A stretch of 23,511 nucleotides of DNA from an uncultured euryarchaeote (GTDB lineage Archaea; Thermoplasmatota; Poseidoniia; Poseidoniales; Poseidoniaceae). Of the stretch, positions 16,465-23,511 are shown piece by piece. The notes under the pieces are model-generated. The model made no database searches. It worked only from the letters and a program-made list of their open reading frames with translations, and had not been told where the DNA came from. How positions within the stretch are numbered: the stretch's first letter is position 1; every line of letters begins with the position of its first letter. The stretch is taken from assembly GCA_937899865.1 (NCBI GenBank), contig CALBRH010000027.1, positions 1-23,511 on the forward strand. Direction: 5' to 3'. Both the position numbers and the translations under genes were made by a program.

Positions 16465-17382
16465 TCAATTCGCATTCTCTTTTGGTAAAAAGAATACTTT
16501 AATCAGCGCTTTTGAAATTGCTACTATCACAAACAATACCGCTGAAACCAAGGCAATCATTGAGCCACTACCAGTTCCTAACTCAGTCGAATAATACAAT
16601 CCCAATAAGACTGTGATAACACCAAATATTTGAGACAAAATCACACATGTAAGAAAACTTCTGCTTACTAGTTGAGCAATTGCAGCTGGAGTAACAAGCA
16701 GTGCGGTAACGAGTAATACTCCGACAATTTGAACCATGCTAACTACGACTAATGCTATCAAAATACTCCAAAGTAAACTGATTAATGGAACTGGTAAACC
16801 TTGAACTCTAGCTGCTATGGAGTCAATCGAAATTGCTAGTATACTTCGATACAAGATTATTAACAAAATATATGCGAAAAAACAAACTGCAACAATGAAG
16901 TTGAAACTTTCTTCGTCGATTAAGTTAAGACTGCCCCATAGGTATCCTTCTACAGAAGCCAATGAACCTCCTCCCCAAATACGAGTGACAACTATTCCAA
17001 GTCCGAGCATTCCTGTCAAAAATATCGCGATTGCCGTATCACCGGTAATCCATTTTCTATAAGACAGGAAATCAATCAAAATCGCTGCTACTATACTTAA
17101 TCCCAATGCCCACCATAAAGGATCAACCCAACCTACAACAAGACCTATCGCTATACTACCGAATGTAACGTGGGCTAATCCATCACCGATTAGAGCAAGA
17201 TTTCTGATCAATAGAAATGCACCTAAAAACCCGGCGACAATAGAGACAACAATTGCGGCAATCAGTGGTCTTTGATAATACACTTTTGTAAAGTATAGCG
17301 GGAAAACCTCACCTGGAATAAATGGCGCAATGAATTCTAATATTGGCCCTAATAAATCAATAACTAATGACCCGATTACCAT
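16465..17382 (-). CDS. znuB: Zn/Mn ABC transporter permease
   Basis: LIGDGLAHVTFG, YLWGSL and IVGVLLVTALLVTPAAIA motifs, multiple TMs, GGAGGTGA SD. The ATG overlaps the znuC stop (TAATG). Confidence 0.93.
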   Translation of the reverse strand: MVIGSLVIDLLGPILEFIAPFIPGEVFPLYFTKVYYQRPLIAAIVVSIVAGFLGAFLLIRNLALIGDGLAHVTFGSIAIGLVVGWVDPLWWALGLSIVAAILIDFLSYRKWITGDTAIAIFLTGMLGLGIVVTRIWGGGSLASVEGYLWGSLNLIDEESFNFIVAVCFFAYILLIILYRSILAISIDSIAARVQGLPVPLISLLWSILIALVVVSMVQIVGVLLVTALLVTPAAIAQLVSRSFLTCVILSQIFGVITVLLGLYYSTELGTGSGSMIALVSAVLFVIVAISKALIKVFFLPKENAN

Positions 17383-18263
17383 TAACTCTCACCTCCCTCA
17401 GCACCTGGTGAAACAATTATCACTACATCATCACTCTTAGTAACATCAGATTTTGTTGAATCTGCTTCCGGATGAGTTGCTTCGATGCCCCTCAACTCTG
17501 CTAAACTTGACAAATCTGGGAAATCTTCAGCTGTTCCATCATATCTTATCTTATGTTCGAGATAGATCATCCTATGTGCTGTTCTTTTCATACTGGCCAA
17601 ATCATGTGATATCATGACAATCGTTTTGTTTTGATCGTGACACAAATCATCAAGCAAACGCATTATTGAATTACGAGATTCTACATCAACACCTACCATT
17701 GGTTCATCCATCAACAACAAGTCTGCTTCTGATGCTAATGCCTTACCAATTGCTGCTCGTTGGCGCTGTCCTCCTGAAAGATTACTAATCATAGTGTTAG
17801 CATATTGCTTTAATCCAACGGTTTCAATTATCTTGTCAATTTTAATTTGATTTTTCTTCCGCTGTTTGAAAAAGGCTGGAGGTGATATGAAGAAATCTAA
17901 GTATTGCCTAAAAAAATTCCTACTCAATAATCCCAATTGAATAAATTCTTTAACGGTAATTCGCAGATTATGTGGTAGTTCGGTGGCCGCTTGAGGCACC
18001 CAACCTATTCGTCCAATTGTAGCCTTTGACATTGGTGCTTTTCCATAAACATCTATTTGTCCTATCCGAGGTTTTAGAAGCCCAAGAATCGTCAAAATTA
18101 ACGTGCTCTTGCCACCACCATTTGGTCCAACAATTCCAACAAACTCACCACATGTGATTGACATATTGATGTCTTGGATGACTTCATTACCAGAACGATT
18201 TACTGAGAGGTTTGAAACATGAAGAATTTCTTCTCCGCAAACCGGCAAGAATTCTTCGGCCAT
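17382..18263 (-). CDS. znuC: Zn/Mn ABC transporter ATP-binding subunit
   Basis: Walker A GPNGGGKST, signature LSGGQRQR, Walker B LLLMDEP and H-loop ISHD. Start ATG 18263. Confidence 0.94.
   Translation of the reverse strand: MAEEFLPVCGEEILHVSNLSVNRSGNEVIQDINMSITCGEFVGIVGPNGGGKSTLILTILGLLKPRIGQIDVYGKAPMSKATIGRIGWVPQAATELPHNLRITVKEFIQLGLLSRNFFRQYLDFFISPPAFFKQRKKNQIKIDKIIETVGLKQYANTMISNLSGGQRQRAAIGKALASEADLLLMDEPMVGVDVESRNSIMRLLDDLCHDQNKTIVMISHDLASMKRTAHRMIYLEHKIRYDGTAEDFPDLSSLAELRGIEATHPEADSTKSDVTKSDDVVIIVSPGAEGGES
17389..17396 (-). promoter_or_regulatory. Shine-Dalgarno site GGAGGTGA for znuB, located inside the znuC 3' end
   Basis: Minus strand reads GAGGGAGGTGAGAGTTAATG. A similar GAGGTG precedes the NSS transporter ATG. 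Confidence 0.7.
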
Positions 18264-18323
18264 TATACCACTCAATGTGTACTGCAAGTGGTTTAACATA
18301 AATCAATTATGATTGATTTTACC

Positions 18324-19934: not shown

Positions 19935-19998
19935 GTTTAATCCCTGTATAATTAAGTATTTAATAGGTTGTTGCCTAAAGTTATTAATAATATTTATT

Positions 19999-20015
19999 GT
20001 AATAATTATTATTAC
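19999..20015. promoter_or_regulatory. Perfect 8-1-8 palindrome GTAATAAT-T-ATTATTAC; candidate metal-regulator operator in the znuA/nikR-like divergent promoter
   Basis: Palindrome read directly. It lies 21 nt upstream of the regulator ATG, at the expected TATA position, in a 102-bp AT-rich divergent spacer. Confidence 0.65.
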
Positions 20016-20036: not shown

Positions 20037-20483
20037 ATGAGTCAAATTATTTCATTTAGTGCAAATAACAAATTTGCTAACAGTTTGGATGACATGATTG
20101 AAGCCTCTGGATATCAAAATCGTAGCAGATTCTTGCGTGATGCTGCATTGCTATTCACCGAATTAAAACAAAGAGGTGATTTGGAAAACATGGATGATGA
20201 CGAGATATTAGAAGGTCACCTCATTGTTTACTATCAGCATAGTGCCGAGGGTAAAAGACATGGAATCGAACGTAAACTGATTGACTTGAGGCATTCAACT
20301 CTTCTTGAGGTTAATTCCTACAATCACAGTTGCCTAAAACATAGCCACTCTTGTGTTGATATTATGCAAGCAATTGGTCCAGCCAAAGCTTATCGGCATG
20401 TAATTGAAGAATTACAAAACACTCATTATGTCGACAAAGTGACTTTTGTTAGTGCACCAATGCGTGAAGAGGGATGTTGCTGA
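20037..20483 (+). CDS. NikR-family (ribbon-helix-helix plus metal-binding domain) transcriptional regulator
   Basis: GYQNRSRFLRD matches the NikR RHH (GYNNRSEAIRD). VYYQH matches YVYEH. His86/His97/Cys99/Cys106 align with NikR metal-site positions. Confidence 0.88.
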   Translation: MSQIISFSANNKFANSLDDMIEASGYQNRSRFLRDAALLFTELKQRGDLENMDDDEILEGHLIVYYQHSAEGKRHGIERKLIDLRHSTLLEVNSYNHSCLKHSHSCVDIMQAIGPAKAYRHVIEELQNTHYVDKVTFVSAPMREEGCC

Positions 20484-20501: not shown

Positions 20502-22382
20502 TTAATCTAAATTATCTTGACAGATTTGAGCAGTGCACATTACTGTTTCATAGTATTCCCGAGTGTCGGGGTCGAAGGTATCGAGTTGCAATGTCGAGCC
20601 CGCATCAACAACTGTTACTATGGTTGATGCAGAAGATGGAAGATAATCTTCCCCAGTACTGCGCAAAGTCAGTTTTATTGTATGTCCGGCTGGAACTTCT
20701 ACATCCATAGGGAAGAATTCCATCAGTGCAGTGATTTCTTCGAATACTGGAGTCCATGTTTGTTCATCATCGCCTCCTGCATGGTACCTAAGATCCATTA
20801 TTGCGTGGCCAATATGAATACAATTAGCACCATCACAGTCTTCAAGTAAAGCGTAAATTTGTCCACCTACATTTGCAGTATTAACATTAACATGTAAACG
20901 AGGTAAGCCACCAAAGTACAAGTCTTCTTCCAAAGGAGGTGTTTCATAAACGGGTCCAGAAGATGCATCGGGACGGATAATATTGCCGCCTCCAGTTGAT
21001 GCTAAATCAGCAGTACCTAACTCCAAAATAAGTTCAGTTGTTTCAGTCATTGGATAACGCTCTTCAAACCGCCATTGACCTTGATTGGATTGAATTTCAA
21101 CACCTAACCAAGGTTGAGGACCTTCTTCTCTCAAGTAATAAGTAAACCACTCAAGTAAGTCTTGCATCCAATCCATCCTAACCATTTCTGGGAAGGCTTC
21201 TATTCCACGTCCAACTCCACTTCTATCAAACATAATTTGTGGCCTATCTGGATAATCATGATCCCACTGTCCGAACAATCCTTTGGCTTCGATACCATTG
21301 TCATACAGACGATTTATGGTTGGTACAGCCATGTGTGGGTCGACATTCCAATCATGCATTCCTTGAATCAAATATACGCTACCGTTGTAATTTTCTAACA
21401 CTCGGTCAAGGAAATATCGCTCGCCCCAATAGTTGCCGGCTGCTTCACCGCCCCACGCCCATGCTGCGCCACCGGTCGCTGGACCTGCGATATAATCAGG
21501 ACACATATTGCCGGAATCTTCCAAATCACCATCGATTCCATAGGAGCCGTAAACGCCGTTGTGCATGATTGGTGCTCTCGCTTCACTACTGCCATTCCGC
21601 CACATTAATTCCATAACACCAATCAAACCAGATATTGGTACGATTGTAGTCAAATGCTCATTGCCAAACATTGCCGCTTGCCAAGGGGTTGAACCATCAT
21701 ATGATTTACCAATCATCCCAACATTTCCATTACTCCAATTTTGTGAGCCGAGCCACGTAACTGCTGCATCAACACCTAGTTGTTCGGCTGTTCCCATCAA
21801 ATCCATACAGTGATTTGAACGGCCAGTACCCATTACAGATACTTGGGCGAAAGCATAACCATGAGGAACTATTTGTTCAATAATCATGGTGCCTAGCCAT
21901 GTTCCTGGCTCTTCGATACCACCTGTCTCAACCGATGCTTCATCGAAATACGGGCCGAATTCAGCAATTACTGGAACTGTCGTATTACCTTCCATAACCG
22001 GTACCCAAACTGCCAAGCTAACCTTGCCATTTGGTGCTGCTCCACCTTCTTCCAATGGCAATTCAAATTCAACGAAGTGATGTGTTCCAAGCCACAAACT
22101 AGCGCCATCAGGTCCAGTTAACGAGCCATTTTCTAGGACGTATGAGTTTTGATCATCGGTATAATAATTCTCAAGATACCGCTCAGCGATTGGCGTATAT
22201 CCTTCCATGGATTCTTCAATTGCTTGTTCTTCTAACGGGGCACCAATAACTCTGCTCATTAGCAGAAAAACAAGTACTACAGCAACAGTTGCACCCAATG
22301 CCGCATTGAGTGAACGGGTTGCATCACTCTTTTTTCCGGGCCATTCTTCAACAAGTTCAGCCTCTAGAACCTGCCCGTCCAT
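20502..22382 (-). CDS. CocE/NonD-family hydrolase / X-Pro dipeptidyl-peptidase (S15), N-terminally membrane-anchored
   Basis: Nucleophile elbow GMIGKSYDG, GTGRS, candidate triad Asp (HDWNV) and His (QWDHDYP), C-terminal PepX-like beta domain, N-terminal TM helix. Confidence 0.9.
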   Translation of the reverse strand: MDGQVLEAELVEEWPGKKSDATRSLNAALGATVAVVLVFLLMSRVIGAPLEEQAIEESMEGYTPIAERYLENYYTDDQNSYVLENGSLTGPDGASLWLGTHHFVEFELPLEEGGAAPNGKVSLAVWVPVMEGNTTVPVIAEFGPYFDEASVETGGIEEPGTWLGTMIIEQIVPHGYAFAQVSVMGTGRSNHCMDLMGTAEQLGVDAAVTWLGSQNWSNGNVGMIGKSYDGSTPWQAAMFGNEHLTTIVPISGLIGVMELMWRNGSSEARAPIMHNGVYGSYGIDGDLEDSGNMCPDYIAGPATGGAAWAWGGEAAGNYWGERYFLDRVLENYNGSVYLIQGMHDWNVDPHMAVPTINRLYDNGIEAKGLFGQWDHDYPDRPQIMFDRSGVGRGIEAFPEMVRMDWMQDLLEWFTYYLREEGPQPWLGVEIQSNQGQWRFEERYPMTETTELILELGTADLASTGGGNIIRPDASSGPVYETPPLEEDLYFGGLPRLHVNVNTANVGGQIYALLEDCDGANCIHIGHAIMDLRYHAGGDDEQTWTPVFEEITALMEFFPMDVEVPAGHTIKLTLRSTGEDYLPSSASTIVTVVDAGSTLQLDTFDPDTREYYETVMCTAQICQDNLD

Positions 22383-22419: not shown

Positions 22420-23187
22420 CTAATTTGTACCGTCAAGTAGAGTATGAAATTCAAGTAATCTGGCAAGTGCTGGTGCAGTTCTTGAACCAAACCAGGTCAA
22501 ATCTTCACCGTCAATCAGTTTGACAGTGGGCGCCTTGCCACCTGCCTTGACAATATTAGCGGCGATGCCATGTCCTTCTTCAAGCGTAAATTCATGCGGC
22601 TCACTAGTAAGCAAAATCAACTCGATATCATATTCAATAAAATCATCAACTGAAACTTCAGGATAACCATTGCTTCCTGGATGAGTATCGATTACATCAA
22701 ATCCGACTTCAGAAAGTATTGCGCCTGCATATTTTTGAGGAGAAACTGCCATCAAAGGCTCATACCAAATTAGCGGCACAGTTCTAAGGCTTCGGGCGGT
22801 TGAGTGAATTTGACTTAGCGAATCTTCACAAAGTAACGCTAATTGTTCACCAGTAGAATTACGACCACAGGCCTTGCCTAAGTCTCTTAGCATCTTAGGT
22901 ACATCTCGAGGTGATTCTACTTCACTAACAAAAATAGTAAAATCTTCATTTTGTAGAGTTTGATAGATTTCAAGTGGGTTTTCTTCTTTATCCATCACGA
23001 TAAGATCGGGTTCTAAGTTGCGAATTTTGTTAAGGTTTGGCGTCTTAGTACCACCAACTATCATGACTTGCTCGACCTTGTCTTTTGGATGTATACACCA
23101 CGGTGTTCGCCCAACCACCTCATCAGTGGTTAGCCCCAAATCAAATAGGGTTTGAGTTAGTGAAGGTACTAAACTCACTACTCGCAT
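22420..23187 (-). CDS. BtuF-like helical-backbone metal receptor (cobalamin/iron-complex binding fold), no signal peptide
   Basis: MRVVSLVPSLTQTLFDLG, VVGRTPWC, VGGTKTPN and LEPDLIVMDKEEN. Start ATG 23187. Confidence 0.82.
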   Translation of the reverse strand: MRVVSLVPSLTQTLFDLGLTTDEVVGRTPWCIHPKDKVEQVMIVGGTKTPNLNKIRNLEPDLIVMDKEENPLEIYQTLQNEDFTIFVSEVESPRDVPKMLRDLGKACGRNSTGEQLALLCEDSLSQIHSTARSLRTVPLIWYEPLMAVSPQKYAGAILSEVGFDVIDTHPGSNGYPEVSVDDFIEYDIELILLTSEPHEFTLEEGHGIAANIVKAGGKAPTVKLIDGEDLTWFGSRTAPALARLLEFHTLLDGTN

Positions 23188-23267
23188 AAAATTGCCTACA
23201 TGGAAGATACTGATTATTATTTCATACACCCTATAATTAATCTACAACAACGGTCAAGGATTATACA

Positions 23268-23511
23268 ATGGAATTGAAATTAAGTACCCTATTGATGATT
23301 TTACTTGTCCTTCTTTTGCCGCTTTCTGGCTGTTTTGGAGAAGACGAAAAGGAAGATGAAGAAGTTGAAGACTCCGAGCAAATCCAAGAAGAGATTTTGT
23401 TTGAGGGAGACGATGTTGGAGAATGCTCAGATGGTGCAGATAATGACCGTGATGGCATGTTTGATTGTGACGACCCAAACTGTGCAGGAGCTCCTGTTTG
23501 TAAACTAGATG
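23268..23511 (+). CDS. Truncated secreted lipoprotein-like protein with a Cys/Asp-rich motif; runs off the window and is absent from the ORF track
   Basis: Manual translation from ATG 23268 gives MELKLSTLLMILLVLLLPLSGCFGEDEKEDEEVEDSEQIQEEILFEGDDVGECSDGADNDRDGMFDCDDPNCAGAPVCKLD..., with no stop before the window end. Confidence 0.85.
   Translation, partial: MELKLSTLLMILLVLLLPLSGCFGEDEKEDEEVEDSEQIQEEILFEGDDVGECSDGADNDRDGMFDCDDPNCAGAPVCKLD

Follow-up and report, generated by a model that had tools for sequence, protein, structure and literature searches.

The window, that is, the whole stretch of DNA analysed here (23,511 nucleotides of a contig from an uncultured member of the Poseidoniaceae), carries a regulator gene related to nikR which stands head-to-head with the genes znuA, znuC and znuB (Table 1). 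The original prediction had described a NikR-fold open reading frame divergent to a His-rich znuACB operon, and both parts were borne out: NikR is the top PDB match of the 148-residue product by sequence as well as by fold, the three transporter genes were assigned by Pfam, and ZnuA contains two His-rich inserts. A six-frame search detected a single copy of the regulator in the source genome. Downstream of it, on the minus strand, follow genes for an S15 X-Pro dipeptidyl-peptidase (20502-22382) and for a lone Peripla_BP_2 protein of the cobalamin/siderophore type (22420-23229); between the latter and the window end at 23511, no open reading frame of at least 50 amino acids had the size of an ABC permease or ATPase.

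Table 1: Features of the regulator/znuACB locus (positions within the window).
Feature	Position	Strand	Basis
znuB, ABC-3 permease	16465..17382	-	Pfam ABC-3 2e-50; best NCBIfam model AztB, below cut-off
znuC, ABC ATPase	17382..18299	-	Pfam ABC_tran; best NCBIfam model AztA 4.6e-42, below cut-off
znuA, cluster A-I solute-binding protein, 536 aa	18324..19934	-	Pfam ZnuA 6e-43
AT-rich box, consensus CTATTAACTATTTAAT (+ strand)	19948..19964	-	14-30 nt upstream of znuA ATG; conserved across loci
Operator TAATAATA-N11-AATTATTA, inverted repeat, one mismatch to consensus	19985..20011	.	Conserved in 62/78 loci with <=1 mismatch
Regulator gene	20037..20483	+	ORF and translation, 148 aa; NikR_C match; NikR best by sequence and fold
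Candidate metal-site segment His86 to Cys106 (H86, H97, C99, H102, H104, C106)	20292..20354	+	PhNikR ligand alignment, conservation
Cys147-Cys148 codons, end of invariant G-C-C	20475..20480	+	121/121 clusters; 79/80 species loci

The computational analyses demonstrated the fold of the regulator, which consists of a ribbon-helix-helix (RHH) domain (approximately residues 3-44), an ACT-like NikR_C domain (approximately residues 57-139) and a Cys-Cys tail. The NikR_C model (PF08753) fell slightly short of the Pfam cut-off of 22 bits when run on the protein (21.5 bits) and exceeded it in the six-frame search (22.6 bits); for several members of the regulator family PF01402 is recorded, and for most relatives PF08753. 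Five NCBIfam NikR models span nearly the whole protein with 27-41 bits, below their cut-offs of 83-175 bits, and the Pfam search yielded no FUR domain in the protein. The best solved relative found by phmmer against the PDB is the NikR of P. horikoshii (PhNikR; 2bj1, E 9e-8), and from residue 6 on the regulator aligns with the RHH domain of NikR. An AF2 model built with 27 relatives (pLDDT 76) shows the RHH domain, with helices at residues 11-24 and 29-44, followed by a ferredoxin-like beta-alpha-beta-beta-alpha-beta domain; the N-terminal segment has no secondary structure in the model, residues 1-6 having a pLDDT below 50. The top Foldseek matches of this model are all NikR structures, to which the C-domain compares with TM scores of 0.80-0.85 (normalised to the target chain) and an rmsd of 1.8-2.7 Å. 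The DNA-reading strand, QIISFS, had been predicted to lack the Arg of NikR, and it does so: residue 3 is Gln in the regulator, whereas canonical NikR representatives have Arg in this strand. Over 121 clusters of the regulator family, this residue is Gln in 94, Lys in 14 and Arg in 6.

Zinc-specific cluster A-I proteins bind their metal by three His and one Glu and carry His-rich loops, in contrast to the 2His/Asp/Glu ligands of the Mn/Fe type (PMC7731109); the general 3His/1Glu rule of this source was used as criterion for a zinc-type ZnuA. Residues H76, H365, H432 and E507 of the ZnuA of the window align to these four ligands, and two inserts rich in His, Asp and Glu are present at residues 184-213 (30 residues) and 289-348 (60 residues). 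Its best PDB matches are the zinc-specific proteins AdcAII, AdcA, Lbp, Lmb and YcdH with E-values from 1e-30 to 1e-20, compared to approximately 1e-17 for Mn/Fe proteins. Judged by these residues, ZnuA is of the zinc type. Rinke et al. likewise regard ZnuACB as the zinc importer of the Poseidoniales, which is missing in deep-water genera (PMC6461757). The second ZnuA insert holds eight DEDGH repeats, and in many public assemblies the contig stops inside znuA, just past the regulator; the repeats therefore probably break assemblies, so that znuA is under-counted in MAGs.

The regulator family is confined to the Poseidoniales. A search of 5.8 billion proteins yielded 293 matches, for which every stated taxon is Marine Group II or Poseidoniales, except for one MAG labelled Verrucomicrobiales, and the regulator was found in 230 of 301 Poseidoniales genomes, representing 23 of 26 genera. 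The linkage to the transporter is kept in these relatives: among the 75 informative species loci, defined by at least 400 nt of upstream DNA, 67 have znuA divergent to the regulator, and znuC and znuB come after znuA wherever the DNA extends far enough. Eight loci deviate from this arrangement; one of them has a ZIP transporter at this place, and two are from genomes with znuA elsewhere.

The intergenic region contains a conserved 27-bp inverted repeat, the operator, with the family consensus TAATAATT-N11-AATTATTA, in which the centres of the two arms lie approximately 21 bp, i.e. two helical turns, apart. Automatic scoring of 78 loci detected 27 perfect sites and 29 sites with one mismatch (56 together). 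This procedure retained the first best spacing met, and six additional loci with a spacing of 11 were read by eye (one mismatch in the window, L006, L039 and L082; perfect in L062 and L081), resulting in the total given in Table 1. The spacing is 11 in 66 of the 78 loci, with the 11-nt spacer itself having almost no information content; the information values of the half-sites are inflated, as the sites were chosen by match. The right arm ends 25 nt before the ATG of the regulator gene in the window, and usually 24-26 nt before it across loci. On the other side lies the AT-rich box, which also accompanies znuA where this gene is unlinked from the regulator and is probably the znuA core promoter (putative TATA/BRE). 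In most loci the proximal arm of the operator is 6 nt from the AT box and abuts the putative BRE position, approximately 35 nt from the znuA ATG; in the window the latter distance is about 50 nt, and an extra 16 nt or so separate operator and box both there and in the closest relative of the window.

Within the 2.01-Mb source genome the operator of the window is the sole site with at most one mismatch (0.36 expected). Sites having two mismatches numbered 10 where 6.4 were expected, which is at chance level and consequently gives no evidence of further targets in a regulon. Searches with a reversed control pattern yielded no match in any genome scanned. As a second line of evidence, genomes in which the regulator and znuA are separated were examined. 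In G301 and G304, where the regulator lies elsewhere, the only operator of the genome is located 35-36 nt upstream of the distant znuA and is followed by the AT-rich box ATTAAATAGTTAATAG, as before znuA everywhere. G303, in which no ZnuA was found, has its only operator in the interval that separates the regulator from the ZIP transporter. The operator thus follows znuA or ZIP, and we consider it very probable that the regulator controls znuACB through this site. The conserved AT-rich elements might also be read as merely two divergent TATA boxes; this reading was rejected because the full inverted repeat is found with the same 35-nt offset at znuA genes that have no divergent gene. Two further genomes, G302 (L038) and G305 (L022), contain the regulator, and neither ZnuA nor an operator was found in them, the ZIP gene of G302 included. 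Both loci have a degenerate repeat upstream of the regulator and, downstream of it, genes for SelO and an SMR transporter; either these genomes are incomplete or their regulator is an orphan.

The regulator has His or Cys at residues 61, 68, 75, 86, 97, 99, 102, 104, 106, 121, 130, 147 and 148, in agreement with the predicted positions of H86, H97, C99, H102, H104, C106, C147 and C148. Alignment with PhNikR (2bj1) places H86 at His78, H97 at His89, C99 at His91, H104 at His95 and C106 at Cys97, and the proposed one-residue insertion before C106 was recovered in this alignment. High-affinity Ni binding in PhNikR involves four ligands, His78', His89, His91 and Cys97, which correspond to His76', His87, His89 and Cys95 of E. 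coli. The canonical His3Cys Ni(II) site is therefore not present in the regulator: the His89 position of E. coli is occupied by Cys or Ser, and the other three positions are invariant. Over the 121 clusters, H86, H97, H104, C106 and the terminal G146-C147-C148 are invariant, with C99 retained in 116 and H102 in 117. Among 80 species, 68 have Cys and 11 have Ser at the position of C99, which is unread in the remaining one; all 11 Ser99 species have znuA alongside and an operator with no or few mismatches. H102 varies at the level of these 80 loci, too, while the terminal Cys-Cys is present in 79 of them, the other having an ambiguous base there. The strictly conserved set thus comprises His86, His97, His104, Cys106 and the terminal Cys-Cys; Cys99 is usual but dispensable, the Cys-Cys tail is not. 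The proposal of a His2Cys2 site with an 'H89C' exchange consequently stands for the location of C99, at His91 of PhNikR and His89 of E. coli, and for its conservation in most clusters, but not for the species with Ser. As these species keep both znuA and the operator, the site is probably not simply H86/H97/C99/C106, and the ligand set is uncertain. Neither a His2Cys2 site nor His/Cys donors in general are sufficient to tell zinc from nickel.

A profile search of NikR-like relatives was performed over 1.84 billion representatives. The closest matches outside the family carry an H-x-D motif plus Cys-Cys at the Cys position of NikR, and two of these H-x-D...C-C relatives are encoded by the last gene of znuA-znuC-znuB operons. 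One member with an H-x-C motif, P0204 (L086:3020-9293), adjoins three genes for CobW/COG0523 GTPases and one for a 54-aa paralogue of ribosomal protein S14. COG0523 together with an S14 paralogue is a zinc-starvation signature (PMC2770081), and the P0204 locus looks like an archaeal zinc-starvation regulon. The same locus also contains a DUF7511 gene, and TTATTA-N15-TTATTA is found upstream of the P0204 regulator. Another H-x-C member adjoins znuABC. Zinc importers are linked to full His3Cys relatives as well (L114:1256-5405 and L113:898-2096): one is divergent to a znuA-znuC-znuB operon that is closed by a second NikR-like gene, and another is co-operonic with ZIP, overlapping the ZIP stop codon. 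Linkage to importers is hence a property of the clade and not of H89C alone, and the claim that H89C marks a zinc type did not hold in this form. The expected co-occurrence of H89C with znuACB applies to the Poseidoniales in so far as their regulators are linked to znuA, but the Ser99 species and the His3Cys clades have this linkage, too.

The variant clades have in common an (I/V)(I/V)S-x-S (IIS-x-S) reading strand where canonical NikR has Arg, as well as TTAWTAA-type half-sites approximately 21 bp apart. A quick tree separated all variants from 43 canonical His3Cys proteins, each group occupying one half; deep support is weak (SH-aLRT 88-91) and provides at best a hint that the zinc-linked clades are monophyletic. 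The branch may comprise the Poseidoniales family, the H-x-D...C-C and H-x-C clades and some His3Cys members, using several ligand sets. Whether this branch supplies the equivalent of Zur that archaea have so far been missing, by turning the scaffold of the nickel sensor into a zinc sensor, with a Poseidoniales site that uses the Cys-Cys tail, is in our judgement evenly balanced. The tail has no counterpart in any solved NikR. Two canonical His3Cys NikR proteins, P0197 and P0252, are encoded on short contigs with unannotated neighbours. The divergent high-GC sister lineage P0132 (L091:5001-5426), which is abundant (53 collection blocks), has both the G-C-C tail and the H-x-C motif; neither a znu neighbour nor an AT-rich operator was found at its locus, where the neighbours are DUF835 and DUF309.

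Based on these data, we propose with some confidence that this Poseidoniales-specific member of the NikR family is a zinc-uptake regulator, which when loaded with Zn(II) would repress znuACB and its own gene. It would act on the only zinc importer of the archaeon, through one conserved site per genome, and is probably a zinc sensor. By analogy with NikR, we infer a tetramer that would set one ribbon-helix-helix dimer on each arm of a single 27-bp operator; this site borders the znuA core promoter on its upstream side, and its other arm overlaps the likely TATA region of the regulator gene. At sufficient cytoplasmic Zn(II), metal in the central ACT-like domains would lock the DNA-binding conformation, candidate ligands being His86', His97, His104, Cys106, the C-terminal Cys147/Cys148 and usually Cys99. 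The loaded tetramer might then occlude BRE and TATA of znuA as well as its own TATA box, repressing znuACB and the regulator gene, and under zinc scarcity the apo protein would leave the DNA so that the importer is expressed. The core of the original prediction, a Zn(II)-responsive znuACB repressor in the role of Zur, is supported by synteny, by the operator that follows znuA or ZIP, by the zinc-type ZnuA, by the lack of Fur/Zur and by the independence from Ni-SOD; its arguments from H89C, from the His2Cys2 site and from the absence of Ni genes turned out to be weaker. With respect to Fur/Zur, no domain of this family (PF01475) was detected at E <=0.01 in the source genome, which is approximately 91% complete.

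The regulator might instead be a true nickel sensor, a divergent NikR, with a Znu-type ABC importer supplying Ni(II), e.g. for Ni-SOD. Every characterised NikR senses nickel only (PMC11672702), and the Ni ligands are retained at three of four positions (His86, His97 and Cys106), with Cys or Ser, not His, at the fourth. The absence of Ni-related genes had been part of the case for zinc. Among the scanned open reading frames of the window there are indeed none, but the genome encodes Ni-SOD on another contig (sodN, C54:13516-13905, minus strand, 155 bits), and the nickel importers NicO, CbiM and HupE/UreJ were not found in the source genome. Since Ni-SOD is present and no recognisable Ni importer was found, a nickel role of the ZnuACB transporter is conceivable; His-rich loops, too, can bind Ni. 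The distribution of both genes argues against nickel as the signal. Of the 63 genomes from the genera g16, g17, g19, g20 and g21, 52 encode the regulator and none encodes Ni-SOD, and among 13 loci sampled from g16, g17, g19 and g21, 11 have znuA and the operator, with znuC and znuB in the seven of them that have enough upstream DNA. Conversely, both genomes of genus g14 encode Ni-SOD and neither has the regulator. Operators were found at zinc-type ZnuACB or at ZIP, the latter being the partner in one genome, and none at sodN in the source genome; the ligand set of ZnuA is of the zinc type and its nearest solved relatives are zinc-specific, and the relative P0204 stands in a zinc-starvation context. 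A convergent sodN follows 300-700 nt downstream of the regulator in genus g25 (G167:C37, G191:C11, G107:C17, G229:C57, G103:C15 and G195:C12), which places the regulator between znuA and sodN. Such an adjacency, which would suit a nickel sensor, may be due to chance or hint at cross-talk between Zn and Ni. Weighing these points, we regard a nickel sensor as unlikely and zinc, from the sequence evidence, as quite probably the effector of the regulator.

It is likewise improbable that the regulator acts via the operator on znuACB in response to another signal, such as another metal (Mn, Fe, Co or Cu) or the oxidation of thiols in the Cys-rich site and tail. Cluster A-I importers carry Mn or Fe too (PMC7731109), each chain has four to five conserved Cys including the vicinal terminal pair, and a passage in PMC10783094 places the Poseidoniales in oxidising surface water. 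Nevertheless, ligands and loops of ZnuA are not those of the Mn/Fe type, the ZIP and COG0523/S14 contexts of relatives indicate zinc, and the operator was found at the Zn importer alone, without a broader regulon for stress. A zinc sensor might also work by the opposite logic, the apo or the Zn-bound form activating znuA and repressing only its own promoter. At znuA the operator lies upstream of the putative TATA box and neither covers nor follows it, a position which could serve activation, as could, even more so, the additional distance in the window; furthermore, the NikR of H. pylori both activates and represses (PMC11672702). On the other hand, the proximity of the operator arm to the BRE in most loci would suit an occlusion of TFB/TBP, the NikR proteins of E. 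coli and P. horikoshii are known just as repressors of importers (PMC11672702), and an activator that requires metal would have the wrong homeostatic sign. There is little chance, in our view, that activation applies, and we retain the Zn(II)-loaded repressor as the preferred reading.

Current reviews treat NikR as nickel-only (Chem Rev 2024; a 2026 preprint speaks of a 'highly specialized nickel sensor'), and for most archaea no zinc sensor acting on transcription is known. The archaeal genomes available to Haas et al. in 2009 had no recognisable Fur/Zur homologue, and for Methanosarcina a DtxR-like regulator, 'ZntR', was predicted by these authors, as a prediction only (PMC2770081). If our reading is true, it adds a variant of NikR that senses zinc, acts at a defined 27-bp operator and governs a single operon, and it would illustrate how an allosteric scaffold can stay fixed while its metal selectivity changes. 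Zinc limitation would also become directly tractable in Marine Group II, the surface ocean's most abundant archaeal plankton, in which operator-controlled znuA transcripts could mark zinc stress in situ. The idea of a zinc-sensing NikR itself is not new. For methanogens it was raised in 2011 by Kaster et al., who suggested in one sentence, without analysis or experiment, that the Methanothermobacter NikR homologue MTH603 / MTBMA_c09830, which adjoins znuABC, might sense zinc (PMC3087415). New here are the evidence from unlinked operators, the decoupling from Ni-SOD and the Ser99 subgroup.

Like MTH603 / MTBMA_c09830, the regulator is an archaeal NikR homologue beside znu genes; in probable contrast to that system, the Poseidoniales have the ligand pattern H-S-C...H-S-H-x-C with a G-C-C tail and a divergent arrangement. 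The H-x-D...C-C clade whose genes end znuA-znuC-znuB operons may be of the MTH603 type. In its proposed role, the repression of znuABC-type importers in the Zn(II)-loaded state, the regulator resembles Zur, AdcR and the predicted ZntR, which usually have a very small regulon. The regulator can be a functional analogue of Zur only, its fold being unrelated to those of Zur (Fur family), AdcR (MarR family) and the DtxR-like ZntR. With the NikR proteins of E. coli, H. pylori and P. horikoshii it shares the RHH domain plus ACT-like NikR_C fold, three of the four high-affinity ligand positions (His78', His89 and Cys97 of PhNikR) in addition to His95, and a location beside a metal importer with probable autoregulation. 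The operator is similar as well: the pentamers of H. pylori NikR operators are 15 nt apart, TRTTA-N15-TAWTA (PMC5385501), compared to TAATAA-N15-TTATTA here, with AT-rich half-sites two helical turns apart. Differences from NikR are Cys or Ser at His89 of E. coli, the extra His102, the one-residue insertion, the invariant C-terminal Gly-Cys-Cys, a reading strand without Arg and a target of zinc-type ZnuACB or ZIP instead of nik or cbi genes. A further insertion of seven residues, H-S-A-E-G-K-R (residues 68-74; window positions 20238-20258), lies between the second strand and the next helix of the metal-binding domain; it is limited to the close relatives of the window, a subclade with 148 amino acids, while most of the regulator family has 141.
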